IMG/VR virus record: IMGVR_UViG_3300046170_000364
Span: 1 to 56,266 of that record
Source: a virus
Taxonomy: Duplodnaviria; Caudoviricetes
Strand: one strand, 5' to 3'
Length of the DNA: 56,266 nucleotides
In this document: positions 3,190 through 56,266 of the stretch, one piece after another
Numbering within the stretch: the first letter of the stretch is position 1
Layout of the letters: the number at the start of each line of letters is the position of its first letter
Program-made: the position numbers and the translations under genes
Notes under the pieces: generated by a model
Database searches by the model: none
What the model was told of the DNA's origin: nothing
Seen by the model: only the letters and a program-made list of their open reading frames with translations

Positions 3190-4674
3190 TGGGACTTCGT
3201 ACACGATTTCTAAGAACGCTGGGGCTCCAGCGAGTGCCACGGGATCAGCCTCGTCGCCGTCGCCGTAGCTATGCGGGTGCGATTGTTTCGCGTCTTACTA
3301 GCGACTGGATGAGCACTAGGGCCAGTGCTGATGCCGAGATTCGGAACAGCCTGAGCAAGCTGCGCGACCGTTCGCGTGAGATGGTGCGGAATAATCCGTA
3401 TGCAAAGCAGGCGAAGCGCACCACTCAAGTCAATGTCGTTGGCAGTGGTATCAAGCTCCAGTCCCAGGTTCAGCAGGTTCGTGGCCGGAAACCCAGTGAA
3501 GCGATTAATCGCCTCATTGAAGAGAAGTGGCATTTATGGACCCGTGCGCAGTATTGCGATGTTGCGGGGCGACATAGCTTCCACATGATGGAATGGCTGG
3601 CGACTGGTGCTTTACCTGAATCAGGCGAAGCGTTGTTTCGCATCATCCGGCGTCCGTTTGGGGGCAGCAGGGTGCCATTGGCCCTTGAGATGATCGAGTC
3701 TGATGTGCTTGATGAGGAGTATCAGGGACCAACGCTCGCGAAGCTCAATGAGTGGAGGATGGGCGTTGAGATCAACGAATGGGGTCGCCCTGTTCGTTAT
3801 GCGTTCTTAACTCGTCATCCTGGCGACTATTGGTTCCAGAATGCACCTCAGAAAGGTGACAAGCATGTTTTCCTGCCTGCGGAAGACGTAATTCACTTGT
3901 TTCTTCCAGAGCGTCCGCAACAGCATCGCGGAGTGCCCTGGTTCCATTCAGTGATGGCTGATGCTCATCAGTTGCAGGGTTACGAAGAAGCCGCTGTGAT
4001 TCGCGCCCGTGCTGGTGCTTCTGTAATGGGATTTGTCACAAGCCCAGAGGGTGAGCTTGAGGGCGATGATGTCGAAGCTGATCGCAGAATTAGCGAGTTT
4101 GAGCCTGGGATGTGGAAGTATCTGGAGCCTGGTCAGAATGTTGAGCGTTCCAAACATCAGCTCGCCTGATCAGCAGTACGAGATGTTTGTGAAGAATAAG
4201 GTTCGGCGTTTTGCGTCAGGTTTTGGTTGTTCTTACGAGACGTTATCGCGTGATTTCAGCGAGACGAATTACAGCAGCAGCCGGTTGAGTTTGCTTGAAG
4301 ATCGTGAGCACTGGAAGGTTATTCAGTCTTATTTGATCGAAAACTTTCATAATCGGGTATTCCGCGAGTGGCTTGACTTAGCTGTATTGGCTGGTGAGCT
4401 TCCGTTCGATGATTACGATTCACGTCCTGAGCGTTATGACACTCCGCGATGGATGGCTCGCGGATGGGATTGGGTTGATCCATTGAAGGAAGCAAAAGCT
4501 TATCGCCAGATGGAGCAGGCTGGTTACATGACCAAGGCTCAGATCGTCGCGAAGCTTGGCGGAGACTTCTTTGACAACCTCACTGAGTTCTCTCGTGAAC
4601 AGCAAGCAGCCGAAGAGCTTAACGTTGAGCTTGATCGTGACATTATTGATGAACTCCCAGAGGAGGTTGAGTGA
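3189..4674 (+). CDS. Portal protein, lambda family (frameshift near 4145)
   Basis: LRDRSREMVRNNPYA, GVEINEWGRPVRY, QHRGVPWF, NYSSSRLSLLE and WVDPLKEA motifs. Confidence 0.93.
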
Positions 4675-30744: not shown

Positions 30745-31780
30745 GCCGATCACGCTTGAGCAGCTTTTCCGTTACTACAAAGCGCTGCCGCATCAGGCCG
30801 CAGCAATTCAAGAGTTAGAGGCGGATCTAAGCAAAAACGGCTATGAAATCGCGATGCGTCGCGATCGGGTCTGGTTTGCAACATGGAGCCAATCAGGGAA
30901 GCAACCAGATCCACCACAGGCATTTGACAACACTTGGGACGGAGTTCTCGCTGCGGCCAGACATGCCGGGGCAAAGTTTCCCGATGTCGCAGCAGCTCAA
31001 TGGGCACTTGAAAGTGGATGGGGCGAACACACGTCGGGGAAACACAATTACTTCGGATTGAAGGGATCCGGCACAGCCGCAACCACGCGGGAGTTTTTGG
31101 GCGGGCAATGGGTCACGATCACCGACAAGTTCATCGATTTTCCATCGCTGGCTGCCTGCATCGAGTATCTTGTGTCGCGCTGGTATAAGGACTATCGGCA
31201 GCATCATGGCGTGAACCGAGCCATGACACGCGATGAATGCGCGCAGCTGCTTGTGAGCGAGGGCTACGCCACCGACCCTGAATACGCCAGCAAGTTGGTC
31301 TCAATCATGGATAGAGCTGCAGTCAAGAGTAAGCCTGCAGAAGAGAAACCACGCGAGATTGCGAAAATACGGCCCGGCTCACCATTCAGCACCCGGCTGA
31401 CCCCGCATATCACGCTGGGTGAATTTGCGCTCGGTCGAGAGGAACGGCGTTTTGAGCACCAGTATCAGGTTGATATGGCCGCTGAGCTGGCGGCATTCCT
31501 AGAGCGTGTCCGCGTCAAGTTTGGGAACAAGCCGATCGTTATCACGTCTGGCTACAGACCACCAGCAATCAATCGATCAGTCGGCGGAGCTAGCGGGTCA
31601 GAGCACTTGTATCCACCAGGCGCTGGCGCTGTGGATTTTTATGTGCAAGATACTGACATTTATGCTGTACAAGAATGGTGTGACCAAAATTGGCCATACA
31701 GTCTCGGTTATGGTGCAAACCGTGGATTTGTCCACCTCGGCATAAGAAAAGGCGGTCCAAGAGTACGCTGGGATTACTGA
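30731..31780 (+). CDS. Endolysin: GH73 glucosaminidase + peptidase M15A
   Basis: AAQWALESGWG, HNYFGLK and GYATDPEYASKL (GH73); ITSGYRPPAINRSVGGASGSEH..AVD..FVHL (M15). Confidence 0.9.
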   Translation: MTNIKPITLEQLFRYYKALPHQAAAIQELEADLSKNGYEIAMRRDRVWFATWSQSGKQPDPPQAFDNTWDGVLAAARHAGAKFPDVAAAQWALESGWGEHTSGKHNYFGLKGSGTAATTREFLGGQWVTITDKFIDFPSLAACIEYLVSRWYKDYRQHHGVNRAMTRDECAQLLVSEGYATDPEYASKLVSIMDRAAVKSKPAEEKPREIAKIRPGSPFSTRLTPHITLGEFALGREERRFEHQYQVDMAAELAAFLERVRVKFGNKPIVITSGYRPPAINRSVGGASGSEHLYPPGAGAVDFYVQDTDIYAVQEWCDQNWPYSLGYGANRGFVHLGIRKGGPRVRWDY

Positions 31781-31791
31781 TCGCTTCGTTC

Positions 31792-32310
31792 ATGACTGTG
31801 CTTTCTGATCTTGAGATTGTTTCACTGTGCTCCAGCGGAGCGATCGAAGACTGGTCTAAAGATCTGATCAACCCGGCCTCGCTTGATGTAAGGCTGGGCA
31901 GTGGATTGATGATTGAAGTCGCAGGGCAGAAAGACCTGCTCCATGTTGACATCTCCAGCCGGACAGAAAAGAATCCTTATCGGTTGACCCCAGGCGAGTT
32001 CGTCTTGGCCGAGACTCACGAAACTTTTAAAAAAATACCTGATCACATTTGTGCTCAGTTTGCGCTGAAATCAAGCAGGGCTAGGGAGGGATACGAAAAC
32101 CTTCTTGCCGGGTGGATAGATCCAGGCTTCTGCAACAGCAAACTTACCCTTGAATTAGTGAATGTAAGGCGTCATTACGACCTTCCGCTATACCCTGGCT
32201 TGAAAATAGGGCAGATCATCTTTATGAGGATGAGCGAGGTTCCTCTGAAAAGTTACTCGAAAACGGGTCGCTATAACGGCGACGTAGGGGTCCAGGGCAG
32301 TAAAGGTTAA
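31792..32310 (+). CDS. dcd: dCTP deaminase
   Basis: INPASLDVRLG, PGEFVLAET, KSSRAREG, AGWIDPGF, LTLEL and KIGQ motifs; likely start MTVLSD at 31792. Confidence 0.92.
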   Translation: MTVLSDLEIVSLCSSGAIEDWSKDLINPASLDVRLGSGLMIEVAGQKDLLHVDISSRTEKNPYRLTPGEFVLAETHETFKKIPDHICAQFALKSSRAREGYENLLAGWIDPGFCNSKLTLELVNVRRHYDLPLYPGLKIGQIIFMRMSEVPLKSYSKTGRYNGDVGVQGSKG

Positions 32311-33747: not shown

Positions 33748-34044
33748 TCAGTCGTGATTTAAGATCACGTCTTGCTCTAAGGACTGAAGCTCTGAAGCAG
33801 CGCATAGTCTCATTTGGTCGTGCTCGGATGATGAGTTGAAGCCATCCCAGCGAACGGCGAGATACTTGCGCTGATGGCCGTCTTTTCTTGTCTTGGTCCT
33901 AAGCTCTGTTACCGTGCCAATCCTCGACGAATATCGACGCTGATTCTCTGGCTTAACAGCAATGCCAAGATGAATGCGAGGTTTTTCCGCAACTCGATCA
34001 CCAACGGAGAACTTGAACGGTGTGCGGCGTGATGCTTTTGTCAT
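33748..34044 (-). CDS. Hypothetical SH3/Tudor-like protein
   Basis: FKFSVGDRVAE..GTVTE..YLAVRWDG; ATG at 34044 overlaps the thyX stop. Confidence 0.65.
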   Translation of the reverse strand: MTKASRRTPFKFSVGDRVAEKPRIHLGIAVKPENQRRYSSRIGTVTELRTKTRKDGHQRKYLAVRWDGFNSSSEHDQMRLCAASELQSLEQDVILNHD

Positions 34045-34766
34045 GGCGCTAAACGAGCTTTGCCCCAGCGATTTTTTGTGTACCAGTCGTGAACTGGTGG
34101 GATCCACTCTGCGAAATGCGGCATCATCAACTGGCACATCTGATGAATTTCTATCTGCGCATCTGCCTTGCCCCGCAGGTCGAGGAAGTGCATAAGGCTG
34201 CGCAGGTTGAACGTTACGACAAAATGCTGTCGGTAATCAAACGGCAGCACTCCTCTAGCCTGCTCCTCTGATATGCCAGCATCAAGAGCTTCCTTATAAC
34301 GCCGGGCTGAATCCTCGCAGTGCTGCAGATCCTTGGCCCGTAGTCGCTCGTCGTATGTATATCGCTTGCCCTGCCTGTTGATGTAATCACCAACAGGCCG
34401 CAGGTAAAAAGCTTCCTCGACATCGACAACGCCCTCAGCCACAGCAGCGATTCGCTGGCCGGTATAGCGCATGGACTGAACGTCCCAGCTGGTGCCCACC
34501 CTGTGAGTCCGAGCTTGTTGGATTACCGAGTGAGGGAAATAGCCAACAGCAAATGTGATACTGGCGTGTTCCAGTGGGCCGTAATGGCCGCGACCTCCCA
34601 AAAGCAGGTGCTTTACGATTCGATCACCAGCGTCTGGCTCGCTCAGTGGTTCGTCATGGAAGACCCAGCCCTCGCTGTAGTCCTGATGCATCGCCTGCCA
34701 GCAAAGTGTTGCAGGATCCTTGGTCTGACTTAAAACGCCAATCTGGAAATAAGGTTCAATTTGCAT
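34041..34766 (-). CDS. thyX: Flavin-dependent thymidylate synthase
   Basis: GHYGPLEH, QARTHRVGTSWDVQSMRY (RHRxxS...SxRY), EQARGVLP, NLRSLMHFLDLR, AQIEI. Confidence 0.95.
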   Translation of the reverse strand: MQIEPYFQIGVLSQTKDPATLCWQAMHQDYSEGWVFHDEPLSEPDAGDRIVKHLLLGGRGHYGPLEHASITFAVGYFPHSVIQQARTHRVGTSWDVQSMRYTGQRIAAVAEGVVDVEEAFYLRPVGDYINRQGKRYTYDERLRAKDLQHCEDSARRYKEALDAGISEEQARGVLPFDYRQHFVVTFNLRSLMHFLDLRGKADAQIEIHQMCQLMMPHFAEWIPPVHDWYTKNRWGKARLAP

Positions 34767-39528: not shown

Positions 39529-40274
39529 GAGTCCTCCTGTGTGGTGGTGATGGGGGCTTCCTTGATCAGCCTGAGCAGAGTGTCCCGCTGTCTGCGGCGA
39601 GCGGCTATTTTGGGGTTAAGGGCGTCAGCGAAGCGTGCAGCCCAAGCAACCATGCCAGCAGCACTGGCAGCAGCCCAAGCAGCACTGGCGTCGGCAGCCT
39701 TGGCGTCGGCAGCCTTGGCGTCGGCAGCCTTGGCATCCCTGGCATCCCTGGCAGCACTGGCAGCGTCAACAGCAGCGTCAATAGCAGCCCTGACAGCACC
39801 GACAGCGTCGGCAGCGTCGGTATCTCTAATATCCCAGACAGCAGCGTCGGCAGCCTCAACAGCCTGGGTAGGCCATTCCTTACCCTCCGACAACAAGTCC
39901 ATCCCCGCGATAACAGGGTCGATCGCCGCTTGAACGTCAGCGGGAACCGGCGGCAGTGAACGCAACTCTGCGGCGAGGAATTGCCATCCTACTAGCGTCA
40001 AATTTTTGCTGTTGCATCCAATCGCAGCAGGCAGCGCAGCGAAGAGACTAGGCGCTTCGCTCGGAGGCAGTCCCTCGAAGATCGACTCCGCTACACGGCT
40101 GACCATTCGTGGGATCCCGTATTCCCGCTCGATATATGCGGGGTTATCCACCCCGTTAGCCAGACATCCAATGAAGCAGGTCCTGTAGCTACCTTGCATG
40201 ACGCGATCAGCTATGACGTGAGCTGCAACTTCAGCTTGTAGTTGGTGAAAATTCTTAGTGATCACTAGTTGCAC
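39525..40274 (-). CDS. Hypothetical protein with Ala-rich low-complexity tract
   Basis: 249-aa ORF; CFIGCL, GIP..AESIFEGLP; AADAK x3. Confidence 0.7.
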   Translation of the reverse strand: MQLVITKNFHQLQAEVAAHVIADRVMQGSYRTCFIGCLANGVDNPAYIEREYGIPRMVSRVAESIFEGLPPSEAPSLFAALPAAIGCNSKNLTLVGWQFLAAELRSLPPVPADVQAAIDPVIAGMDLLSEGKEWPTQAVEAADAAVWDIRDTDAADAVGAVRAAIDAAVDAASAARDARDAKAADAKAADAKAADASAAWAAASAAGMVAWAARFADALNPKIAARRRQRDTLLRLIKEAPITTTQEDS

Positions 40275-41070: not shown

Positions 41071-42464
41071 TCAGAAATGGCGCGATGCCATTATTTTCTT
41101 CGCCCATGGTACTGGGTATTTGTAACCTCGACTTTTGCCTAGTTCAATCAATTGCTCCAGCGTTTTAGCTCTACCCTGCTCCGCACGTTTAGCAATATGG
41201 GCTTTTTGCTTTTGCAGTCTCTCCAAGGCAGCCGCCTGTCTTGAATCAATCTCACCCAATTCACCATCAACCTCGGCTGGGCCACCACGATTCGGAGCCG
41301 GATACCGATAGCCGCATTCAGGGCAAACCGGCGCTGGAACATGAGCACAGAAACAAGCAGGACACTGCCTGACGGGAGGTGCCTGCTCGCCTCGCCTCTT
41401 CCGTCCCTCCAGGCTCCATTGCCGTTCCATGTCCGGGGGACCGTGCTCGAAAATCGAACCGGCATGATCCAGCACGGTTAAATGCTGCTTGCCACTGTCC
41501 GGCGACGTTCGCAGGCCGCGACCAATCGATTGCAGATAGAAAGTCAAGCTCTTAGTTGGCCGTAGCAAAATAATGCACTCGATCTGCGGCACATCGACAC
41601 CAGCCACCCACAGCTGGGCATTGCAAACAACCTGCAAGCTGCCGTCCCTAAGGCCAGTCAGCGCCGCGACTCTCTCTGATCGCTTGCTCTTGCCTGAAAT
41701 TGCAACAGGCCTTGTAGCCCTGAGCCTGGAACTCAGCAGCAACATGCTCGGCATGGCTGATCGAAGTGCAGAATGCCACTGCTCTCTTGCCGTCACAATG
41801 CTTCTGGTAATGCTTGATCACATCACCCGTGATGGTCGAACGGTCCATCTCACCATCGATGTCCGACTGCCTGTAGTCACCAGGCCTGCATCCTTAGCCC
41901 GGTCAGGTCCGGTCGATGTGGCGCGAAATACTTGATCGGGGCCAAAAGCCCCTCTTGGATTAATGCGTTAGTGCTGCATGTCGGCACGATCTCATCAAAG
42001 ATCTCGCCCAATCCCTTGCCGTCCAATCTGCATGGAGTGCCGGTCAGCCCCAGCAGCGGTGGGTTGCCAATCTTGCCCATCACCTTGAGATAGGTCGTGG
42101 CCACGGCCAGATGGCACTCATCCACAATCACAAGGTCAGGTGGCGGGAACCCATCACGCCTCGCAGCAGTTTGAACGCTCACGACCTGAACCCGGCGGTG
42201 ATACTCCATTGGCTTGCCAGCAGCAATCTCACCAAAAGGGATCTTCACCGAACGCAGCCGGTTAGCCGTGTCATCCAAAATCTCCCTCAGATGAGCAAGG
42301 AACCAGACAGTCTTGCCCTTATCGAGCGCAGACTGGATAATCGCTGCACTGGTATGAGTTTTGCCGAAGCCAGTAGCAGCACACAGAATCGGAGCCCGAT
42401 ACCCAGACCGATACGCAATCCTGATGTCATTTATCGCCTGAACTTGGCGGGGGCGGAGGGTCAT
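41071..42464 (-). CDS. Superfamily 2 DExH helicase with C-terminal zinc finger (frameshifted)
   Basis: LRPRQ, ATGFGKT, IVDECH, GLTGTP, GVDVP, YLQSIGRGLR, CPAC..CPEC. Confidence 0.92.
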
Positions 42465-44524: not shown

Positions 44525-47193
44525 ATGCCTAACTCTGTTCTTATCGACTGGTCAATCACCGATGACTTCCTTGAAGCCATCGGTCGCAGCACCGGCCCCA
44601 TAGTTGTTGCTGTTTACCCCTCAGATCCGTCGCGGCCTTGCATCCACATCAAGGCGGACGCAGAGGACCTGCCGCGAAACAAAATCGAACGCATCCTCGC
44701 TCGTAACTCAGGCAGCAGTCTTGGCTTTGTAGTAAACCCACCCTCAGACCAGCCTGCCGTATGGGGCACCAAGCCAGAGCACATCAACCGGGCTGGTGAG
44801 ATTAAAGCTTGGGGCGCATCCAATGCCCACATCGAGCACGCAATCGCCTGCTTTGCAGAGTGCGACGGCAATCTCGACCGCGAAGCTCAAGCGGCACTGC
44901 CCGCAATGGCTGGCCTCCCGGAACCAACGGTCTCGGTCTGGACTGGTGGCAAATCCCTCCACCATTACTGGCTGTTCACCCCAGGCCAAGAGCCGGACAT
45001 CCAAGATTTCTCGGACTTGCAGCGCCGGATCGCCACGGCAATCGAGATTGTTGCGCCTGACTCCAAGCCAGACAAGGCGATCTCTAACGCATCTCGCGTC
45101 ATGCGCCTGCCCGGTGGTATCCACCCCAGTACTGGCGAACGCACGGTTATCGCCTCGACCAGAACTGAAACATTCACCCCAGACGAGATCGGTGCTGCTG
45201 CTCCAACGATTCTTCAACGTGGCACCCGCCCAGCAGAACCGTCTCATCACTGGTTTTCTAAACTCCCACCCGCAGAGCAGCGCACACTTGCTGTTGAAAT
45301 CCTCCGTGATTACATCCCACTCCGCACTGAAGCAGGCCAAGGCACCTATCCAACCTGCTTCGCCTGCCTCGCTGCTCTAACTCACCATTTCGGACAGTCA
45401 CTTGCACAGGACATCGTTCTGGAAGCTGACTGGCAATCACCCGGCACATGGGAGCCAGCCAAAAAGATCCTTTCAATCGGTGATGCACCAATCAGGGCGT
45501 CAATCAGCAGGCTGATCAACACCGCAATAGCAAACGGCTGGGAATTACCCCAAAATGTTGATACCGAAGAGCCAAACGAAGCACCAGAAGAACATCATGC
45601 AGTCATACCTTTTCAGTTTCTTGGTTATGAACATGGCAAGCATTACTACATGCCTAGAGCAAGTTCACAAGCAATTGAACTGACAATATCGTCACATACT
45701 AAACTGCACCTAATTTCGCTAACAAGCTCCTTAGAGTTCTGGCAGCGCAACTTCACAGTCAACGACAAGCTTGACTGGGATCTTGCTACCGAATGGCTAA
45801 TGCAAGAATCACACAAAAAAGGTGTATTTGATCCTGATCGTATTAGAGGCCGTGGTGCTTGGGTAGATGCTAATCGCGTTATCTTTCACCTTGGCATGAG
45901 AATGATAGTTGATAATCGCGAGCAAAAAGTATCAGACGGAATATCGAGTTACTACTTTTACGAACACGCCAAACCCCTTGATGGGCCTAGTGAAATCCCG
46001 TTAGAAGACGATGTTTCGGTTCAGCTTTTTAGACTTGCAAAGTCTTTCTCTTGGGAATCACCTTCCTATGCGTTCCTGCTTGCTGGCTGGGTTGCTCTTG
46101 CTCCTATCTGTGGCGCACTTGAGTGGCGCTCACATATCTGGGTCACCGGAGGTAAGGGCACGGGTAAGACAACAATCCTCAGTCGTTTCCTTAAGCCTTT
46201 GCTAGGCGGCATTTATCAATCAGCCACAGGTGGAACCACTGAACCTGGCCTTCGCGCTGCTCTCCGGTCTGATGCAATCCCTGTACTGTTCGATGAATTT
46301 GAGCAGAACGACTCCCGCGAAAAACAAAATCGCGACAACGTTCTAGCAATGGCAAGGATCGCATCATCGGAAGGCGGCAAAATCATTAAGGGCTCTGCTG
46401 GTGGTGGTGCCGCTAATCAATACGAAATCCGCTCCATGTTCTGTGTTTCATCAATCAATGCTTCCTTAGTGCAAGGCGCTGATCGTGATCGCTTCTGTGT
46501 CCTTACCTTGCAGAAGGGCGAGGGGGACTGGCTCCCGCTTGAGGCACAGATCGCCAAGCTCTGTACTCCCGAAACAGGTCGCAGCCTGGTGGCACGAACA
46601 CTGGCACGGGTGCCGACTATTAGGGCCAATGCGCGGAAGTTTGCAGCGGCCCTAGCTGATCGAGCACGGTCAGCGTTTTGGTGATCAACACGGCACCCTG
46701 CTCGGCAGGTGCATTCAGCCTGCTCCCAGGCAGTGATCGTGAGCTGTCTGATGTAGAGGCTGCTGAGTTTTGCGCTGGCATCGACTGGACATCACAGCGG
46801 CGCGATGAACGTGACGCTGATGAGGATCAATGCCTTGCGCGGATCCTTGAGTCAATGATCGCCGTGGAGGGCGGCAGAAGGTTCACGATCATGAATCTTG
46901 TCGAGAGTCTTTGCGGTCCCAAAATGGGAACTATTGAAGGTTCTGATGAAACTGCGGAAAAAGTTCTTGGCAGATATGGAATCAGACTTATGTCCGGTTC
47001 GATGATGATTGCTAATTCAAATACGAATTTAGAACGGCTTTTGAATGAGACAGCATGGTCTGGAGGGGCTCACAAGCAAGCACTGAAGCGGGTTTTCGGG
47101 GCTTCAGGCTCCACAGGAATGGTGAGATTCTGCGGAAGTAAGTCATCTAGGGCTACAGTGATTCCACTGACGGCAATTATCGACACGGATTAG
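44525..47193 (+). CDS. Primase-helicase (RepB-like primase + P-loop helicase), frameshift near 46660-46680
   Basis: FAECD, WTGGKSLHHYW, SRVMRLPGGIH; Walker A GGKGTGKT; Walker B VLFDEFE. Confidence 0.88.
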
Positions 47194-48499: not shown

Positions 48500-49251
48500 A
48501 TGCCTTCCATTGCTTCGCTAAGAAAACAGGTCAAACAAGCTGATGACGCCTACAGGTCTGGCAATGCGCTCATGAGTGACCAAGACTTTGACCAACTTGC
48601 CGCTGACCTCAGAGCGGTTGCGCCGTTCGCTCCTGAGCTAATGCTCCCCGGGGGCGGGTCTCATCTTTTGAGCCTAAACAATGGCGACAGAGAGGAGCTA
48701 GCCCACTGGCTCTCCATGAGCGGCGCACAGGAGCCTCTGTGCGTGTCGGAAAAGGTTGATGGGTGTGCAATTGCCATTCGCTACGTTTCAGGCCGCTTAG
48801 AGGCCGCCTGGACGCGATCTGGTGCTGACGCTACTGCTTTGGTTGCTCGTGTTGCTCCAAAAAAGCTCTCACAGCGTCTCTCCATTGAGGTTCGCGGCGA
48901 GTTGTACGACTCGGTGACTGGCAAGCAAAGCGTTCCTGCTCAAGCCTTTGCGTAAGGCCGAATCACACTGGCGACGGACTGGGCTTTATCGCCTACACCC
49001 TTGTTGATGCTGATGGCGATGAGTTCTTGACGCTTGAGCGTTTAGCGACTCTTGGATTCGACACCGTGTCAGCTGTTTGCTGTACTACTGTCGCTGACGT
49101 GATCGCTTGTCATCGCCAGTGGAAAGCTGGATGCTTTGGCCGCTCAGAGCTTCCTACTGACGGCATCGTCATCAGGATTGCTGACCACGCAGCGCAGCAA
49201 GCTCTGGGCTGTAACAGCAAGGCTCCCAATTATGCTTTCGCTATGAAGTGA
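48500..49251 (+). CDS. NAD-dependent DNA ligase adenylation domain only (indels near 48945-48965)
   Basis: Domain Ia (DDAYRSGNALMSDQDFD), LLSLNN, EKVDG, IEVRGEL, LGFIAY, PTDGIVI, PNYAFAMK*. Confidence 0.85.
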
Positions 49252-49513: not shown

Positions 49514-49714
49514 ATGCAAACAGTTCACCTCAAAAAGTCCCATGACTTCGCAATTTTCATCGAAAACCACGGAGGAAGCTGGTTTGAAATCTCAGGGCAA
49601 GGTCGCGTCGCCCTCACTCCCGGCAGGTACATCAGCGCCTCCGACGCTAAGGACAAAATTCAAAGTCTGCGCTCAATGGGTTACAAGCGACAGCAACTCG
49701 CCAGTGATTCGTGA
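49514..49714 (+). CDS. Hypothetical protein
   Basis: 66-aa ORF with A-rich leader. Confidence 0.55.
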   Translation: MQTVHLKKSHDFAIFIENHGGSWFEISGQGRVALTPGRYISASDAKDKIQSLRSMGYKRQQLASDS

Positions 49715-49818
49715 AATCGTTGGAACGATCAGCTGCATGGCTGTAATTACTTACGTTTCCGGCTACACGTTTGGAACTTGGTTTCACAAGACTAAAAAAC
49801 AACTAACAGCAAAAAGCA

Positions 49819-50349
49819 ATGACTCGATTAATCGGACTGTATAGCCATGCTCCCGGCTCTGGGAAGACCACTGTTGCGTGGATGTGCGGAGGTTACAAAA
49901 GGTTGTCTTTTGCTGATCCGCTGCGAAAGTTCTCGGCCCAAATTCTTTCGTCTATTGGGTACGACGGCGTTGCCTGCTTGAGGGACAATAAGGAGGACAA
50001 AATTGTTGAGCTTGGTGTCTCCCCTCGCCAGATGATGCAAACGCTGGGCACTGAGTGGGGCCGGTCTTGTATTCACCCTGACCTCTGGGTCATGGTCGCC
50101 TCATGGGCTGCGATTAAGCAGTTGAAGAGTGGGCGAAATGTTGTTTTTGATGATGTGCGCTTTCCGAACGAAGCGGAAATGATCCGCAGGCTGGGCGGTG
50201 AGCTATGGCTTGTGGACCGGCCTGGTGTCCATTACGACGGAGACCATTCGAGCGAAGGCGCTTTGGCGGATGTTTTACCTGATGCGGTGGTTCATAACAG
50301 CGGAACTTTTAGTCACCTCCGTGAAGTGGTTGCTGGATTGCTCGAATGA
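49819..50349 (+). CDS. Deoxynucleoside monophosphate kinase
   Basis: LIGLYSHAPGSGKTT, SFADPLR, PRQMMQTLGTEWGR, VVFDDVRFPNE, HSSE. Confidence 0.92.
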   Translation: MTRLIGLYSHAPGSGKTTVAWMCGGYKRLSFADPLRKFSAQILSSIGYDGVACLRDNKEDKIVELGVSPRQMMQTLGTEWGRSCIHPDLWVMVASWAAIKQLKSGRNVVFDDVRFPNEAEMIRRLGGELWLVDRPGVHYDGDHSSEGALADVLPDAVVHNSGTFSHLREVVAGLLE

Positions 50350-50450
50350 CACTCACTATCAATTTTCTTGTATCTGGCTTTTGCTTATGGCTTGCTTTGG
50401 TCGCATTATTCCTTTTCTAATTGTCACTTTTTTTGTTTCTATTGCTTTAC

Positions 50451-50666
50451 ATGAACATGCCCTTATTTTTCCTGCTAGCACTGGTCACGGGGCCACCTAT
50501 CCAGCGAGTCGGTGAGACCTGTCCGCTGGGGTACTGGCGAAGCGGTGGATACTGTGTGGTTTCGCCTGGGGCCGTTGAGGTTCGAGATACGCTGCCAAAC
50601 CCGACTTTTGATACCTGCCCCGTGGGTTGGTATCGGGCGAAGGGTTATTGCCTGAGGACTCGCTAG
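50451..50666 (+). CDS. Small secreted/membrane Cys-rich protein
   Basis: Hydrophobic N-terminus; two TCPxGY/W..GYC repeats. Confidence 0.6.
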   Translation: MNMPLFFLLALVTGPPIQRVGETCPLGYWRSGGYCVVSPGAVEVRDTLPNPTFDTCPVGWYRAKGYCLRTR

Positions 50667-50675
50667 AGTCAAGCC

Positions 50676-50843
50676 ATGACAGGATTCAAATCAGAAGCCG
50701 CTGCTGCAGCACATGAGCAGTACATGAGGAGTGTTCACCTCGACGTTTTGTACGAGTTAGACGGCAGGGATAAGCCTGATCACCCGTTCAGGGGTTGTTA
50801 CACGGGTTTGTGGGAAATGTACGGGGAAAAGCATGACAGTTGA
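50676..50843 (+). CDS. Small hypothetical protein (55 aa, not in ORF track)
   Basis: MTGFKSEAAA..LDVLYELDGRDKPDHPFRGCYTGLW. Confidence 0.6.
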   Translation: MTGFKSEAAAAAHEQYMRSVHLDVLYELDGRDKPDHPFRGCYTGLWEMYGEKHDS

Positions 50844-51048
50844 AATTGCTAACACTGAGGACGGGCTTGGCTTGATCGTTCGCGTATGCGAAGATTCGAT
50901 TTGCCTTACCGGTTTTTGTAGCAGTATGCACCTCGTTGAAAAGAAAGCCAATGAGCTGCGAGCTGCTATCCGAAAAAAAACTGCTAAGGCATTTGCCGAG
51001 ATCCAACAGCTAGAAGCTGAAGCGATGGGAGCACCTGCTCCGCAATGA
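50833..51048 (+). CDS. Hypothetical protein
   Basis: 71-aa ORF in a coupled run. Confidence 0.6.
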   Translation: MTVEIANTEDGLGLIVRVCEDSICLTGFCSSMHLVEKKANELRAAIRKKTAKAFAEIQQLEAEAMGAPAPQ

Positions 51049-51272
51049 GCGCACAGACCGAGCAGCAGCGTCTCGAAATGCCTGCTCATCCTCTGCCTGT
51101 ATTTGAGCGGAATCAAGACGTAAGAATTTTCATGGGTGCAGGCTGGGCTAAAGGCAAGGTCATTCGTTCCGATTTAGACGGCTGCACGGTTCGGCTTCCT
51201 CAACTCCAGAGGACCGTCCGCGTTCGCGATGCTCGTAACATCTCTTTTCTTCCATCAAAACAGGACTGCTAG
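51045..51272 (+). CDS. Hypothetical SH3-like protein
   Basis: VRIFMGAGWAKGKV..CTVRL..DARN. Confidence 0.6.
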   Translation: MSAQTEQQRLEMPAHPLPVFERNQDVRIFMGAGWAKGKVIRSDLDGCTVRLPQLQRTVRVRDARNISFLPSKQDC

Positions 51273-51298
51273 CCAAAATGCGTTTAATGGTGTATGAT
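51270..51298 (+). promoter_or_regulatory. Sigma70-type promoter candidate
   Basis: TAGCCA-17 nt-TATGAT upstream of the 51347 gene. Confidence 0.4.
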
Positions 51299-51346
51299 TG
51301 ATTTGTCGGCGGGTTTCGTCGGCGTTTTTCTTTTTTTTTTTAATCC

Positions 51347-51769
51347 ATGACTAAATTCATTCCCGTAAACGCAGCACTTAATGCTCTGTCAGCAGCTGGC
51401 CATGAGGTAAGCAAGAGAGGCCGATTAAACGGTGGTGTTGCGCAGCTAGGCAGTCCTTCGTATTTCATTGACGGAAATCCCTGCAGCTTAAGTGAAGTAC
51501 GCAGAATGGTCTCTGAGCTTGGGCTTGAGAAGGAAGTCAAAAAATCTCATCAAAAGCCAAAAAGAGAGATTGAGATAATTTCTGAAGCTGTTTCTCGAAA
51601 TGAATGGTGCAAGTCCAGAAACACTTGCATTTGTACTCATGGTGAAAGGCATTTTGATGGTCGAGTTTACTACAGAATCTTTCAAGACAGTAAAGACGGT
51701 TCCAGTAAATCTTATGCAATGACAATTCAAAGAATCAGGGACTGGGCTGAACGCAACAAGGTTATTTGA
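51347..51769 (+). CDS. Hypothetical protein
   Basis: 140-aa ORF. Confidence 0.6.
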   Translation: MTKFIPVNAALNALSAAGHEVSKRGRLNGGVAQLGSPSYFIDGNPCSLSEVRRMVSELGLEKEVKKSHQKPKREIEIISEAVSRNEWCKSRNTCICTHGERHFDGRVYYRIFQDSKDGSSKSYAMTIQRIRDWAERNKVI

Positions 51770-51879
51770 TAGGTGACCTGCAAGCCTCCGGTTTTTACCG
51801 TGGGACTTGCACACACCCGGTTTTTAGGGGGCATGGGACTTGCAAGGGGTCGGTTTTCTTTATGTTTTCACACACAAAT

Positions 51880-51906
51880 GCACACACAAATATGTGTGTG
51901 CTTTTT
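51880..51906 (+). terminator. Terminator-like hairpin
   Basis: GCACACACA-AATA-TGTGTGTGC followed by TTTTT. Confidence 0.6.
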
Positions 51907-52170
51907 AATGAATTGCCTGACCGAGAAAAATATTTCCTGAGCTATTCGCACAAGTCCAACAAAAAAATCGTTCTTGCGAACACTTCTTAATAGACAAATA
52001 AGGTCACTAAATATCATAATCCTAACTCGATGCGAGTTAGCATCAAATAGCGATACCTTGCTTTAGATTTAACAATCACTATTTTTAACATTGCTAAACG
52101 CATTGTTTAAGCAAACTCAAAAAGTAGGTGTTAGCGACTCTGTGAGTTTGTTGTTAATAGTGTTGTTTAG

Positions 52171-52941
52171 TTAGTGATGTTCACCGCCCCGGTGGGTTAG
52201 TGATGCTCACCGCCCCGGTGGGTTAGTGATGCTCACCGCCCCGGTGGGTTAGTGATGTTCACCGCCCCGGTGGGTTAGTGATGTTCACCGCCCCGGTGGG
52301 TTAGTGATGCTCACCGCCCCGGTGGGTTAGTGATGCTCACCGCCCCGGTGGGTTAGTGATGCTCACCGCCCCGGTGGGTTAGTGATGTTCACCGCCCCGG
52401 TGGGTTAGTGATGCTCACCGCCCCGGTGGGTTAGTGATGTTCACCGCCCCGGTGGGTTAGTGATGTTCACCGCCCCGGTGGGTTAGTGATGTTCACCGCC
52501 CCGGTGGGTTAGTGATGCTCACCGCCCCGGTGGGTTAGTGATGCTCACCGCCCCGGTGGGTTAGTGATGTTCACCGCCCCGGTGGGTTAGTGATGTTCAC
52601 CGCCCCGGTGGGTTAGTGATGTTCACCGCCCCGGTGGGTTAGTGATGTTCACCGCCCCGGTGGGTTAGTGATGCTCACCGCCCCGGTGGGTTAGTGATGC
52701 TCACCGCCCCGGTGGGTTAGTGATGCTCACCGCCCCGGTGGGTTAGTGATGTTCACCGCCCCGGTGGGTTAGTGATGTTCACCGCCCCGGTGGGTTAGTG
52801 ATGTTCACCGCCCCGGTGGGTTAGTGATGTTCACCGCCCCGGTGGGTTAGTGATGTTCACCGCCCCGGTGGGTTAGTGATGCTCACCGCCCCGGTGGGTT
52901 AGTGATGCTCACCGCCCCGGTGGGTTAGTGATGCTCACCGC
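52171..52941. repeat. Tandem array 1: 29 full + 1 partial 26-bp units TTAGTGATG[T/C]TCACCGCCCCGGTGGG
   Basis: Counted by hand; no spacers; one dimorphic position; internal CACCG-CCC-CGGTG inverted repeat. Confidence 0.98.
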
Positions 52942-53092
52942 AAGTTGCCACCGGGGGCCGTGTCCTTAGCAACGGGGCCGCCCTGCAAACCGTCCACCGG
53001 TCCTTAACGCTTGCTTGCCAGTGGCGGGGGCATGCCCCTATAAAGGGTGAGCGATCGAAGCAACGATCGAAAATTAAATTGAAACCGAATCC

Positions 53093-53311
53093 ATGCACGC
53101 TCACACCTCTTCCGCCCTTCGCTTCTTTGGCTTTGGCGCAGCTGCAACCGGGGCCGTTCTGATTCACCTTGCTCTGGTGTCGGCTGCGATCCTTCCCATG
53201 GATTCCGAGGCATCCCGCAAGGGCTTAGGTGAATTCATTCAGGCTTCTTTGGCCACCGTGGCGATCGGCGCTGCTGCCGGTTCAATTGGCACGGCTGCAA
53301 AGCGCAGCTAA
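53093..53311 (+). CDS. Small membrane protein
   Basis: Two hydrophobic segments; AT-rich leader. Confidence 0.55.
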   Translation: MHAHTSSALRFFGFGAAATGAVLIHLALVSAAILPMDSEASRKGLGEFIQASLATVAIGAAAGSIGTAAKRS

Positions 53312-53342
53312 TCACTTAACCCTAATTTTTTTCTTTAAAACA

Positions 53343-54053
53343 ATGTCAAACACTTGTCACCCTTACGATCCCTCTACCGTTAACGCTAGGGAGTTTATCT
53401 CGGGTTTGCACCCCCGCCATTCTCGCGCTGGCGTGATAGTGAGCTATCGGGGGCCTACTAATAAGCGGGGCGCAGTTTGGCACGGTTCAATTAAGCGAAA
53501 CGCTAACGAAAGGGCGATCACCGCCACCGTCCCCAGCTATGACGGCCCCGATTCTGCAGCCAAAGCCGTGCTAGTTAAGGCAGACCTGAACTGGCGTCTC
53601 CTGCCCGCCGCATGCTTAGACGGCGGTGATCGTTACGCTTACGCTGCAGAATTGGCCCCCGGCGAAGGGGCCGCCCTTGCACAGGGTGAGCGGGGCATTC
53701 TGGCGATGCATGCATGCCAGTTGATGGGGCATCGCACGGCCCCCTACGGATCGGCCCGTATTGTTGCCGACATGGCCACCGGGCAGCGCAGACCCGAGCC
53801 CATCGTGGCGGGGTGGCGAAAGGGCCACCCGATCCTCGAGACCGTAACGGTCAGGGATCATTTGTGGCGGGATCTTTTTACGCTGAACGATAGCTTCGCA
53901 CCGATTCACGCTATGGCCTGTGCAAGGGCCGCCGGTTGGATTCTGTCGGCTGATTCTCTCGATCTTGCTAAGAAGTGGGTTGATGAATTGGGGCAGACCC
54001 CCGACGCTGCCGGGGTGGCCATTGCTCGCACAGCTTGGGAAGCCCGATCATGA
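53343..54053 (+). CDS. Hypothetical protein
   Basis: Likely start MSNTCHPY after an AT-rich leader; YRGPTNKRGA motif. Confidence 0.65.
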   Translation: MSNTCHPYDPSTVNAREFISGLHPRHSRAGVIVSYRGPTNKRGAVWHGSIKRNANERAITATVPSYDGPDSAAKAVLVKADLNWRLLPAACLDGGDRYAYAAELAPGEGAALAQGERGILAMHACQLMGHRTAPYGSARIVADMATGQRRPEPIVAGWRKGHPILETVTVRDHLWRDLFTLNDSFAPIHAMACARAAGWILSADSLDLAKKWVDELGQTPDAAGVAIARTAWEARS

Positions 54054-54283
54054 TCCGGCCCGGTGATCGAGTTCGGTACTCATCCAAATATTGTCGACAA
54101 TTGGGGGCCGTGTCGGGGTGGCTGCCCTCAGCGCGGGGCACTGTTACCCGCCTATGGGGGACCGGTGATCGATTAGCTGCGATCACATGGGACTATCACC
54201 CCGACGGCCCCGGCAGTCAGGGCGGGGCGGGAGTTGACGTGTTGCAACGGCTCACCCCGTCGGGGTGGCGGCCCCGTTCCTGA
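54050..54283 (+). CDS. Small SH3-like hypothetical protein
   Basis: IRPGDRVRY..RGTVT..AITWD; ATGA coupling. Confidence 0.6.
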   Translation: MIRPGDRVRYSSKYCRQLGAVSGWLPSARGTVTRLWGTGDRLAAITWDYHPDGPGSQGGAGVDVLQRLTPSGWRPRS

Positions 54284-54312
54284 TTCTTCTTTAAAAATCT
54301 TCTATTAATTCA

Positions 54313-55422
54313 ATGATCATGCAAACCGCACCAACTGCCCGTAAGAATGCCCCCTTAGGGCTGCCCGGTGACGTGTCAACTCTATTGGGCCGTTATGACT
54401 TAACCCTGTCGGGGCTGTTGACCGATTCAAACCCCAAGCTGGTAAAGGGGGAAGGCCGGGCCGTGATTCTGCATCACTTGCCCGCCGACGCTTTGGCCCG
54501 TGCTTTGGATTCTGACAACGGCGGCCCGGTGGCTGCCCGTAATTATCTGCCCGATGTGGCGGCCCTTGCGGCCCGGAACGGAATGATCACGGCGGGCTTA
54601 AGGCACAACGGTTGCCCGTGGAAGACTCCCGCATGTTCCCGTGATTGTCTCGCTTTTAGTGGTAGGGGTGGGCTTGGAACAGTGCCCGCCGAGGCAAGGG
54701 CTAGACGCACTTTGGCAATGATCGCCGACCCCGTAGCGTATGGGCGGGCCGTGCTTTGGGCGATAGCTTGGCATCACCGCCGGGCAGCTGATGAGGGCGA
54801 GAGACTGGCCGTAAGGTTACGGGGCACCGATGAGGGCCCCGTTATGGGATGGCACCGGCTCAGACTGCCGATCACTGCATCGGAATCTATGCAGCTTGCC
54901 CGACGGTTTGGCTTAAGTGTGCCCGTTGCCGGTGGCCCCCGTGATCCCGACGGCGGGGCCACACTCGCCGATCTCGCGGGGCACCTAGCCACCTTCTACG
55001 ACTATTCCAAAGCGCCACTACGGGGGCCGCTAGGTTTGGAAGCGCAGCGGGCAGCCGGTTGGGACGTAACCGCAAGTATGGCCCCCGATGCCCCCGACGC
55101 TGCCCGCCGTGTTATTGACGCGGCCCGTGCTGGGTTCCGGGTGGCGGTGCCCGTAGCATTAAAGAAGGGGCAGCGCATCCCGCAAGCGATCACGTTTAGG
55201 GCGCAGGATCGCCAGCCGTTAACACTGGCTACGGTTGACGGTGACGCCCATGATCACCGTTATCGGGAACCGGGCGGGGTGGCGGTGATCCTGAGGCAGA
55301 AACGATCAAGGGGGGGGCAGGGTTCCGGCTCACCTTTCTTCTTAAATGCCCCCGACGCCCCCCGCCGTGATCAAGGGATATCGACGGATCTTCCCGACGG
55401 GGTGGCTCTCTCTTACTGGTGA
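54313..55422 (+). CDS. gp88-like phage protein with Cx6Cx3C motif (possible Fe-S / radical-SAM-like)
   Basis: SNPKLVK, CPWKTPACSRDCLAFSGRG, AVRLRGTDE, FYDYSK, VDGDAHDHRY; family recognised from memory, not searched. Confidence 0.65.
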   Translation: MIMQTAPTARKNAPLGLPGDVSTLLGRYDLTLSGLLTDSNPKLVKGEGRAVILHHLPADALARALDSDNGGPVAARNYLPDVAALAARNGMITAGLRHNGCPWKTPACSRDCLAFSGRGGLGTVPAEARARRTLAMIADPVAYGRAVLWAIAWHHRRAADEGERLAVRLRGTDEGPVMGWHRLRLPITASESMQLARRFGLSVPVAGGPRDPDGGATLADLAGHLATFYDYSKAPLRGPLGLEAQRAAGWDVTASMAPDAPDAARRVIDAARAGFRVAVPVALKKGQRIPQAITFRAQDRQPLTLATVDGDAHDHRYREPGGVAVILRQKRSRGGQGSGSPFFLNAPDAPRRDQGISTDLPDGVALSYW

Positions 55423-55438
55423 TCTAAGCCCCTAAACT

Positions 55439-55502
55439 GCCCCGGCCCTACCGGGCTTTTTATTGCTTGCCCCTATTGCCTGGCCCGGTGATAGGGGCTT
55501 TT
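55439..55502 (+). terminator. Tandem terminators closing the terminal cassette
   Basis: CCCGG-CCCTA-CCGGG then CTTTTT; then GCCCCTATTGCC-6 nt-GGTGATAGGGGC then TTTT. Confidence 0.75.
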
Positions 55503-55505
55503 AAT

Positions 55506-56052
55506 GCCCTGGCGGCTGATCGCCCTGGCGGCTGATCGCCCTGGCGGCTGATCGCCCTGGCGGCTGATCGCCCTGGCGGCTGATCGCCCTGGAGCTGATC
55601 GCCCTGGCGGCTGATCGCCCTGGCGGCTGATCGCCCTGGAGCTGATCGCCCTGGAGCTGATCGCCCTGGAGCTGATCGCCCTGGAGCTGATCGCCCTGGA
55701 GCTGATCGCCCTGGCGGCTGATCGCCCTGGAGCTGATCGCCCTGGAGCTGATCGCCCCTGGAGCTGATCGCCCTGGAGCTGATCGCCCTGGAGCTGATCG
55801 CCCTGGAGCTGATCGCCCTGGCGGCTGATCGCCCTGGCGGCTGATCGCCCTGGCGGCTGATCGCCCTGGCGGCTGATCGCCCTGGAGCTGATCGCCCTGG
55901 AGCTGATCGCCCTGGAGCTGATCGCCCTGGAGCTGATCGCCCTGGAGCTGATCGCCCTGGAGCTGATCGCCCTGGAGCTGATCGCCCTGGAGCTGATCGC
56001 CCTGGAGCTGATCGCCCTGGAGCTGATCGCCCTGGAGCTGATCGCCCTGGAG
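55506..56052. repeat. Tandem array 2: 35 full + 1 partial units GCCCTGG[A/CG]GCTGATC (15/16 bp)
   Basis: Counted by hand: 12 CG-type and 23 A-type units (one with an extra C); no spacers. Confidence 0.98.
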
Positions 56053-56227
56053 ATATATCGTAAAATCCTATTCTTAAATCAATGCTCTACTTTATACAAT
56101 CTATTAATCGTAGTAAAATATTGTTGACAATAGCAATCTGATAAAAATATATTTTTAAGAAAAATAATTTATAGATTTATATCGTAGGATTGACTATGTA
56201 TTACTAATAAAAACTAAAAATTTTTAA

Positions 56228-56234
56228 GGGTCCT
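56228..56234 (+). other. cosQ-like packaging termination site
   Basis: GGGTCCT is identical to lambda cosQ and ends 20 bp before the terminal 12-mer. Confidence 0.6.
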
Positions 56235-56254
56235 ATGTAACACTAACCACTGCG

Positions 56255-56266
56255 AAGGTATTCTGA
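56255..56266. other. Right genome end; putative cos 12-mer
   Basis: AAGGTATTCTGA versus AAGGTATTCGGA at positions 1-12. Confidence 0.7.

Follow-up and report, generated by a model that had tools for sequence, protein, structure and literature searches.

Two unrelated tandem repeat arrays at the borders of a GC-rich gene cassette near the right cos end of a siphovirus genome

We describe a terminal module found in the virus record IMGVR_UViG_3300046170_000364 (Duplodnaviria; Caudoviricetes). The window, that is, the whole stretch of DNA that was analysed, is the entire record of 56,266 bp, and the module occupies positions 51770-56266; the features of the module are given on the + strand, and all positions are numbered from the first letter of the window. 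The module consists of an AT-rich leader, a first tandem array (array 1), a cassette of GC-rich open reading frames (ORFs), two terminator-like hairpins, a second tandem array (array 2), an AT-rich flank and the right cos end. A preliminary description of this DNA had reported two unrelated arrays at the cassette edges, without spacers and with one dimorphic site each, together with a structured leader, a double terminator, an AT-rich flank, a cosQ-like heptamer and a right cos end. Tandem Repeats Finder (TRF) and parsing of the units bear out the arrays, and all of the other elements are present. In the following, we show that the arrays are non-random features of a conserved module, and then consider what they may do.

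Array 1 extends from 52170 to 52941, where TRF reports a period of 26, 29.7 copies and 98% matches. A 25-mer of its unit occurs 29 times without mismatch (0 expected) and is unique to the array in the genome. The units abut head to tail with a constant length, 26 bp in array 1 and 15 or 16 bp in array 2; since there are no unique spacers between them, an array of clustered regularly interspaced short palindromic repeats (CRISPR) is ruled out. No ORF of at least 40 aa overlaps either array. The dimorphic site of array 1 is T in 16 units and C in 13, with one further unit that is cut, and the alleles follow one another in the order TCCTTCCCTCTTTCCTTTTCCCTTTTTCCC. The unit carries two dyads, GTGA-N3-TCAC and CACCG-N3-CGGTG, and the sole variable base sits in the N3 spacer of the former; to judge from the unit itself, this 3-nt spacer is where a dimeric protein would be least sensitive. 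We also considered a likeness between the octamer TGTTCACC in the unit and the P4 origin repeats; no support for it was found in the literature and it is not used here. A Chi-like role of GGTGG-type motifs, which depends on the host, is likewise left aside.

Array 2 extends from 55506 to 56052 (TRF: period 15, 35.6 copies, 97% matches, 1% indels). Its unit is GCCCTGG(A/CG)GCTGATC, with a length of 15 or 16 bp depending on the allele, and a 14-mer of it is found in 35 copies in the array and once elsewhere with 2 mismatches, where 0.47 would be expected. The 35 parsed units comprise 12 sixteen-mers (L) and 23 fifteen-mers (S), in addition to one unit with an extra C, and the allele order is LLLLLSLLSSSSSLSSSSSSLLLLSSSSSSSSSSS. 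In both arrays, like alleles occur in runs, which fits block-wise expansion. Just upstream of array 2, two terminator-like hairpins, each with a T run, are located at 55441-55455 and 55469-55498 (fold z -3.75).

The last and largest gene between the arrays is ORF4 (54313-55422, 369 aa), which we use as the anchor gene of the module. ORF4 belongs to the GP88 family: it matches Pfam PF17338 (GP88) with 40.9 bits against a cut-off of 24.4 (E 2.8e-10, best stretch residues 84-171) and phrog_1617 with 3.9e-21, and its fold matches in BFVD are GP88-domain proteins, down to E 7e-13. The family is named after gene 88 of mycobacteriophage L5, which scores 192 bits (1.4e-56) against the GP88 profile. 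ORF4 has 568 metagenomic homologues, and a profile built on it recovered 53 viral loci that form 42 clusters at 95% DNA identity. Note that all loci compared below, designated L003, L009 and so on, were gathered through ORF4. In an oligo-dT marine RNA library (X19), two 151-nt contigs are identical to 54472-54622 and 54633-54783 of ORF4, representing either a transcript or carried-over DNA.

The AlphaFold model of ORF4 has a predicted local distance difference test (pLDDT) score of 82.6. Foldseek found nothing for it in pdb at E <= 0.001, and the ESM Atlas returned only viral DUF7227 or unnamed clusters. In an exhaustive structural alignment (VIA-align), the top 20 rows are all radical S-adenosylmethionine (SAM) enzymes, the best being 3c8f_A with Z 6.2 and a root-mean-square deviation of 4.7 over 187 residues, although Z values of 5-6.2 lie in the range that the tool calls common. 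The radical SAM motif CX3CX2C is not matched; the invariant cysteines of ORF4 (alignment columns C101, C108 and C112) are arranged as C101-x6-C108-x3-C112, about 50 residues after the first strand. Likewise, ORF4 has no Pfam radical SAM match at E <= 1, and a PDB profile search with the ORF4 alignment gave none at E <= 1. ORF4 is possibly an iron-sulphur enzyme acting on nucleic acid. The context of the GP88 family elsewhere is DNA metabolism; in Caulobacter phage Sansa, for example, the neighbours are methyltransferases and a helicase. Two uses of the name 'gp88' in the mycobacteriophage literature were set aside, namely gp88 of SWU1, an unrelated lysin, and gp88 of D29, which is only a target for the polymerase chain reaction. 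Within the searches made, the literature on the GP88 family and on tandem repeats or iterons near siphovirus cos sites yielded no description of the module.

Three other ORFs precede ORF4 in the same orientation. ORF2 (53343-54053, 236 aa) has 22 homologues, and its AlphaFold model (pLDDT 80.1) contains a strand-strand-strand-helix unit twice, around a helical hairpin. It has no match in Pfam, PHROGs or NCBIfam, no fold match and no usable match in the ESM Atlas. An AP2-type DNA-binding domain, a type that reads GCC boxes, was considered for its N-terminus and dropped: 14 aligned members gave no Pfam match at E <= 5, and the fold searches gave no AP2-like row, with the helical hairpin filling one list and the small sheets barely probed. 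GCCGCC is found in the array units of 4 loci against 2.7 +/- 1.5, which is not an enrichment. ORF3 (54050-54283, 77 aa) starts in an overlap with the ORF2 stop (ATGA) and is small and mainly conserved, with homologues at 56-67% identity in L006, L007 and L009; it has no family or fold match. ORF1 (53093-53311, 72 aa) is hydrophobic and unconfirmed as a gene, with no tblastn match in the 53 loci and no significant Pfam or PHROG family. Of the four co-oriented GC-rich genes claimed in the preliminary description, ORF2 to ORF4 are thus established by their homologues, and ORF1 is present as an ORF only.

The cassette differs from the rest of the genome in base composition, with a GC content of 0.61 against 0.50. 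The excess is seen at all three codon positions, and GC3 is 0.59-0.65 in the cassette against 0.37-0.55 in ten other genes. The same holds in the relatives: over the 53 loci, the ORF4 homologues have a mean GC of 0.68 against about 0.52 for the backbone, whether the backbone is at 0.40 or at 0.63.

Upstream of array 1, the module begins with three direct repeats of 23 nt (51775-51859, element M1; GACYTGCA-N6/7-CGGTTTT), spaced 29 and 33 nt. They are followed by a perfect, terminator-like hairpin, an inverted repeat of 22 nt with 9 pairs and a loop of 4, and then a T run (51880-51901), and by the AT-rich leader of about 270 bp (51902-52169). The leader contains a promoter-like site at 51991-52020 (TAGACA-18-CATAAT, 10/12), but promoter-like sites in this region are no commoner than in shuffles. 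The whole stretch 51770-52169 is AT-rich and folds better than all 100 of its shuffles (z -4.18). An Rfam search of 50500-56266 at E <= 1 gave no family, and no tRNA or tmRNA was found. Between array 1 and the cassette genes, a candidate cassette promoter is located at 53015-53047, consisting of TTGCCA, 18 nt and TATAAA (53015-53044), then GGG; its TTGCCA starts 75 bp after the end of array 1. The window, L003, L009 and L019 share the extended motif in an equivalent position, and these are its only 4 matches in 939,130 nt (the loci on both strands). In L008, a variant of it can be recognised by eye.

The last gene before the module is ORF-A (51347-51769, 140 aa), which has only weak Lsr2-type matches (Pfam E 0.0021; PHROG 0.091). 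Its N-terminal part of about 55 aa resembles the first cassette gene of L003 (BLASTP 40% over 58 aa), with an E value of 0.26 that is not significant, and, by eye, the first cassette gene of L009 (from about 3666 to 4619). In L003 (568-1545) and L009, this gene runs on into a long Ala/Pro-rich tail. In the window, ORF-A sits upstream of the leader, and ORF1 occupies the place of the L003 and L009 gene.

At its other side, the module reaches the right physical end of the DNA. The last 12 nt of the window (56255-56266; AAGGTATTCTGA) and its first 12 nt (AAGGTATTCGGA) are identical at 11 of 12 positions. In the relative L003, the sequence crosses the homologous junction without a break and leads from the cassette to terS and an intact terL of 617 aa. 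When 12 contig ends that lie just past the anchor gene in relatives were compared, 7 (L005-L010 and L013) were found to stop at the position homologous to the window end, with the consensus ...GGGTCC, about 25 nt, CGAGGTnnTTCGrr. For independent assemblies that stop at one non-repeated base, a physical DNA end is the best explanation. On the basis of the 12 nt common to both ends, the junction spanned in L003 and these contig ends, we think that the window is a complete genome with both physical ends present, although the record is classed as 'linear' with an estimated completeness of 71%. The contigs of large relatives measure 55.4-58.3 kb.

The end itself is of the lambda type. The heptamer GGGTCCT at 56228-56234, a candidate counterpart of cosQ, lies 20 nt before the 12-nt overlap, and GGGTCC is found at the same place in most of the relatives' ends. 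As in lambda, where the heptamer lies 23 nt from the right end, there is a 12-nt overlap, and terS and then terL follow the left end; however, the cohesive-end sequences are unrelated, and the window has a minisatellite of about 550 bp that lies 200 bp to the left of the site. Between array 2 and the heptamer, the AT-rich flank (56053-56227) contains a promoter-like site at 56124-56153 (TTGACA-18-TATATT, 11/12 against the consensus), and an AT-rich stretch precedes GGGTCC in the relatives' contig ends too. This site is a candidate late-type promoter that is aimed across cos at terS and would act only once the ends are joined. The late operon of lambda is organised in this way, its promoter being linked to its genes only after end joining. 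At the left end of the window, terS starts 154 bp in (155-712; phrog_57, 8.9e-26) and is followed by terL fragments from 699 (phrog_15, 1.7e-81), the portal gene and a fused protease-capsid gene. We read the window as a complete lambda-type cos siphovirus of 56.3 kb and the GC-rich unit as its probable last transcription unit before cos.

The module was compared with three seawater metagenome runs (X1, X2 and X3) from three studies, of which at most one is the source sample. They contain 61-87% of the sampled words of 51300-56266; run contigs were placed on 52880-55570, which covers the cassette and the inner array edges only. A single contig represents the cassette in X1 (2,488 nt) and in X2 (2,558 nt); its left end lies within array 1 and its right end at 55397 (X1) or 55444 (X2), that is, in or just after the last bases of ORF4, with 60-110 nt left before array 2. 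The array units form short contigs of their own (36-56 nt), which are one-letter variants in the case of array 1. For array 2, they measure 44, 45, 45 and 46 nt, one for each of the four ways in which the two alleles can adjoin. The words of the array-1 unit have a depth of 82-103 against 10.8 for the cassette contig in X1, and of 50-56 against 4.3 in X2; such word depths are not copy numbers, and we read them only as a sign that other samples, too, contain real, repeated and dimorphic units. Neither array is an artefact. X1 and X2 are unlike in the relative depths of the array-2 combinations, and array 2 is hence polymorphic. A 590-nt contig of X3, which shows 9 differences over 557 nt of the ORF4 end, enters a different tandem unit exactly at the array-2 start, which means that a near-identical strain has another repeat at the same place. 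The replacement unit is about 14 bp long and begins behind window position 55504, and other loose ends in X3 show further unit variants. Within ORF2, the X2 contig has one extra C at 53530 where the X1 contig agrees with the window, which is either a strain difference or an assembly error.

The read-through of the arrays in the window can be understood from the state of its genes. The terL of the window is split into five frame pieces, which are 60-86% identical to the intact L003 terL. Genes that look split occur at 699-2562 (terL) and also at 3189-4674, 41071-42464 and 48500-48955 (portal, helicase and ligase), and ORF calls elsewhere in the window need care. These broken frames are probably indel errors of a long-read assembly, and an indel load typical of such an assembly accounts for the reading through of arrays of 550-770 bp.

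To locate arrays in the relatives, we ran TRF with a score of at least 60 and a period of at least 12. Between -3500 and -400 upstream of ORF4, 67 arrays were found in 109.6 kb (0.61 per kb; 34 of 39 loci), and from 0 to +600 after ORF4, 14 in 22.5 kb (0.62 per kb; 11 of 40 loci). The far upstream flank contains 1 array in 64.1 kb (1 of 28 loci) and the far downstream flank 2 in 130.7 kb (2 of 31 loci). Over the 42 non-redundant relatives, the density at the cassette borders is thus about 40 times that of the far flanks (0.015-0.016 per kb). The 36 loci with enough sequence on both sides have arrays on both in 9 cases, upstream only in 22, downstream only in 1 and on neither side in 4. The check proposed in the preliminary description, whether arrays recur around the cassette in related phages, comes out positive as to crowding at the borders; arrays on both sides are the minority. 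Since many of these assemblies probably collapse or break at repeats, the counts in relatives are lower bounds. The L011 contig starts within its 26-bp array, and six contigs of a second clade (L030, L040, L041, L042, L043 and L055) begin at the ORF4 homologue or up to 400 nt before it; assemblies of this clade seem to break just upstream of that gene.

The upstream region of the relatives has a regular order, in which GGGACTTGC-core repeats are followed in many loci by 3-8 palindromes and then, in closer kin, by arrays of period 26. The GGGACTTGC-type repeats are found upstream of the cassette in many relatives, in 2-5 copies with a period of 21-34 bp. The TAGTACAAATGTACTA-type tandem palindromes, in 3-8 copies, are found for example in L013 (4792-4857), L014 (4301-4373), L020 (3942-4012), L033 (4113-4178), L045 (3955-4049) and L053 (4447-4519), among others. 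They presumably fit the cyanobacterial LexA-box consensus. The window does not have them, and the single 22-nt hairpin at 51880-51901 stands in their stead. Arrays of period 26 at the same place as array 1 are present in L009 (10 copies), L011 (5.9, cut by the contig end), L013 (3), L033 (2.3) and L053 (2.4).

Comparison of the units indicates that array 1 and array 2 evolve differently. The units of array 1 and of the L009 array are equal at 19 of 26 positions, where the best rotation of shuffled units gives 12.0 +/- 1.2 and, over 5000 trials, reaches 19 at most. The L009 unit fits the same dyad core on both strands. The ORF4 proteins of these two phages are only 50% identical, and in a sensitive blastn comparison of the two regions, three coding pieces and the arrays align and no other non-coding DNA does. 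The units of L011 and L013 are equal at 21 of 26 positions, and the remaining pairs are near chance. The unit is conserved between diverged phages, unlike the remainder of the leader; this supports selection on array 1, whose unit looks constrained. Array 2 follows the opposite pattern: its unit has no conserved counterpart among the relatives and is replaced in a close strain. This swap for an unrelated unit in a near-identical strain argues against a sequence-specific signal there.

The position of the module relative to the DNA end also differs among the relatives. In the clade of the window, terS lies 400-800 bp after ORF4 in 9 loci, and 7 further contigs end at cos. In the second clade, a ribonucleotide reductase gene lies 2-3.5 kb past ORF4 in all 8 loci tested, and tblastn finds no terS in these 8 loci. 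Nevertheless, the second-clade loci retain the upstream repeats and the GC island. The arrays thus travel with the cassette and not with the DNA end.

We tentatively favour a reading, which may well need revision, in which array 1 would be a set of iterons or operators, expanded in number, that controls an accessory operon, and array 2 would be a hypervariable minisatellite. The GC-rich genes would make up this operon, which would have a promoter and terminators of its own and the GP88-family gene as its anchor. Each 26-bp unit would be a dyad site (GTGA-N3-TCAC) for a dimeric sequence-specific DNA-binding protein, and array 1, 75 bp upstream of the promoter, would control or insulate that promoter. 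Array 2 would fill the non-coding gap between the operon terminators and the late-promoter and cos region, as a minisatellite of fast turnover without a conserved unit, and would be a spacer or insulator at most. The very high copy numbers would reflect recent expansions by slippage or unequal exchange that were preserved by a long-read type of assembly. Anatomy, conservation, placement and polymorphism are observed here, whereas protein binding, a regulatory effect and the timing of expression are inferred.

Known iteron and operator arrays and partition centromere repeats resemble the module in having head-to-tail dyad units of about 20 bp that directly precede a promoter and adjoin AT-rich DNA; conservation of the units within a lineage and their divergence between lineages is a further common trait. 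They differ in having a handful of copies instead of 30, and in the module no cognate binding protein or initiator is recognised and there is a second, unrelated array at the other end of the operon. A partition cassette with centromere repeats was considered and rejected, because the four ORFs include no ParA/ParM/TubZ-type nucleoside triphosphatase and no centromere-binding protein, distant forms being possible; the cassette ORFs have no ParA, ParB or Rep family match in Pfam, PHROGs or NCBIfam. As a transcription unit, the cassette can be compared with the morons of lambdoid phages, which are independent units of promoter, gene and terminator with an odd base composition. Like them, it has clear terminators, a GC content that in the window is 11 points over that of the backbone and a location between the early arm and cos; its promoter-like site, a conserved motif, is a candidate for a promoter of its own. 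Unlike them, it has an elaborate upstream control region and an anchor gene that is GC-rich in all 53 loci, gathered through that gene. That the anchor gene is kept and GC-rich in all of these relatives indicates an old resident and not a recent pick-up.

Several observations weigh against the operator reading. The four other 26-bp units are equal to that of the window at 10-13 of 26 positions, which is no better than chance, and no hexamer is common to the array units of 20 loci, the top count being 6 against 6.1 +/- 0.9 in shuffles. L006 and L007 have ORF3 homologues but no detected array. ORF2, ORF3 and ORF-A have no significant match to a DNA-binding family or fold. Some thirty sites are far above the need of a regulator. 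The sigma-70-like promoter at 53015-53044 is a candidate proposed from its conserved motif, and the consensus scan missed it, the last base of its -10 box being A. The copy numbers in the relatives come mostly from assemblies that may collapse repeats, so that an expansion in this strain could in part be an assembly difference. Finally, an AT-rich stretch beside iterons also fits a replication origin.

We consider it unlikely, but worth serious attention, that both arrays are near-neutral minisatellites, produced by slippage in the non-coding edges of a GC-rich island and kept as tolerated or needed filler length. The copies are near identical with one dimorphic site, as after recent expansion, the make-up of copies and alleles varies between samples, the array-2 unit is replaced in a close strain and the units of 20 loci have no common hexamer; in addition, the 1.3 kb of repeat keeps the window within the 55.4-58.3 kb range of the family. 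Against this, diverged phages have kept the array-1 unit and its 26-bp period but not the neighbouring non-coding DNA, and the 40-fold crowding at the cassette borders would need a purely mutational cause. An origin of replication made up of the leader and array 1, where iterons would bind an initiator beside an AT-rich unwinding region, is in our judgement quite unlikely. Lambda ori and iteron plasmids have iterons that bind the initiator next to such a region, and here dyad iterons adjoin about 270 bp of AT-rich DNA. The module also closes a DNA-metabolism arm with a primase (44525-46684, 719 aa, with no Pfam or NCBIfam family match) and a deoxynucleoside monophosphate (dNMP) kinase (49819-50349), and in the second clade it lies near the ribonucleotide reductase gene. 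However, the turning point of the cumulative GC skew is near 46 kb, where the primase lies and gene direction switches, and not at 52 kb; the module has no DnaA box, no initiator-like protein is encoded beside the array, and thirty iterons would be expected, from plasmid biology, to titrate the initiator.

The preliminary description had proposed instead that the right end enters the cell first, that the cassette is the first-expressed unit and disarms the host, and that the arrays hold up DNA entry, shield the end or serve as decoys that draw host proteins away. The right end of lambda, which is packaged last, is the first to leave, and the window has a right cos end of the lambda type and a cassette with a host-type promoter motif and its own terminators. 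Gene 88 of L5, of the same GP88 family as ORF4, is likewise the second-last gene at a right cos end (49663-50382 of 52297), within 2 kb of it as ORF4 is of its own, and is presumably part of the early leftward operon; it differs in length (239 aa against 369 aa) and points away from the end, and it has only one short, weak tandem repeat nearby (2.7 copies). A further precedent is the T5 stop signal, which is described as ordered DnaA boxes in an untranslated region rich in repeats and palindromes (10.1101/866236). The first-step-transfer region of T5 resembles the module in being a small gene set at the genome end beside untranslated DNA rich in repeats and palindromes (10.1101/866236). The likeness ends there: T5 has a fixed set of DnaA boxes within a long terminal repeat, whereas the module has none, a terminal repeat of only 12 nt and simple perfect arrays. 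The DnaA-box pattern TTWTNCACA is absent from 51770-56266 and has a single match in the window as a whole, where 4.7 would be expected, and the cassette ORFs have no match to T5 A1/A2-like proteins in Pfam or PHROGs. The second clade, where the module is not beside terS in 8 of 8 loci tested, weighs against a tie of the arrays to the entry end. It also fits poorly with the presence of arrays on both sides in only 9 of 36 relatives and with an array-2 unit that is not conserved even between close strains. Moreover, the cassette promoter would enter after the genes, just before array 1, so that a pause at array 2 would leave nothing expressible. As for disarming the host, nothing identifies the cassette proteins as anti-host, none of them matching a known anti-defence or host-shut-off family in Pfam or PHROGs. 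In our view the proposal is very unlikely, although the right-end position of the founding GP88 gene in L5 lends it some appeal. We would put slightly less trust in a variant in which GP88 cassettes, here and in L5, are leading-end genes of cos siphoviruses that host polymerase would express as soon as the first few kilobases are inside, and the flanking arrays and the GC-rich composition would be protein-loaded roadblocks or decoys that hold or shield the entering end, for example against end-degrading nucleases, until the cassette has acted; if it were true, it would mean a two-step or protected entry, which is not known to have been described for a lambda-type phage. We give hardly any credence to a role in packaging, in which array 2, with or without ORF4, would be a region left of cos where terminase or an accessory factor binds and aids termination. 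The HNH protein of HK97 is a precedent for accessory genes adjacent to cos. The 9 loci with terS 400-800 bp after ORF4 and the 7 contigs that end at cos just past it are in line with such a role, as are the downstream arrays, mostly in the clade of the window, and the five spaced GCTGATATC motifs between ORF4 and cos in L003. Yet the module exists away from terS in the second clade, and recognition by the conserved terS (50-70% identical) is unlikely, because the array-2 unit differs between near-identical strains and no motif is common to the relatives.

Outside the module, the window contains a third large tandem array at 28470-29087 (72 bp x 8.6 copies, 85% identity), within overlapping ORFs directly after the tail-fibre genes; a period of 24 codons points to a repeated module in the protein. 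At 39656-39820, short GC-rich tandem repeats (periods 9-15, 2-4.7 copies) are clustered within overlapping ORFs on both strands. Genes resembling deoxycytidine triphosphate (dCTP) deaminase (31690-32310), thymidylate synthase (34041-34766) and dNMP kinase (49819-50349) co-occur in the window, a set that goes along with pyrimidine modification in the DNA of phages. By terL and capsid, the nearest isolates are the Synechococcus phages S-LBS1, S-CBS1 and S-CBS3 and Roseobacter CRP phages, at 41-48% identity, and the terL of L003 matches 854 phage records, among which Escherichia phages are the commonest. To judge from the nearest isolates, relatives of Synechococcus or Cyanobium are the likely hosts. 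A search of the phage collection gave no DNA near-identical to the window. In the genome collection there were two matches only, both to metagenome-bin contigs (one Cyanobacteriota and one Gammaproteobacteria), which is weak ground for naming a host.

The module has consequences for the reading of viral catalogues as well as for phage biology. In two independent runs, the arrays confine the cassette to a contig of about 2.5 kb, and short-read catalogues may consequently misreport this region and the genome ends. The record with both physical ends contradicts its own completeness estimate of 71% and can serve as a check on such estimates. The GC island, about 15 points over the backbone in all relatives and at all codon positions, makes a case for asking whether composition itself is selected. 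The module joins a conserved promoter, a co-evolving repeat, a putative regulator and the GP88 protein family, and if array 1 is a working binding platform, it would provide a compact study system in a widespread family of marine and freshwater phages.

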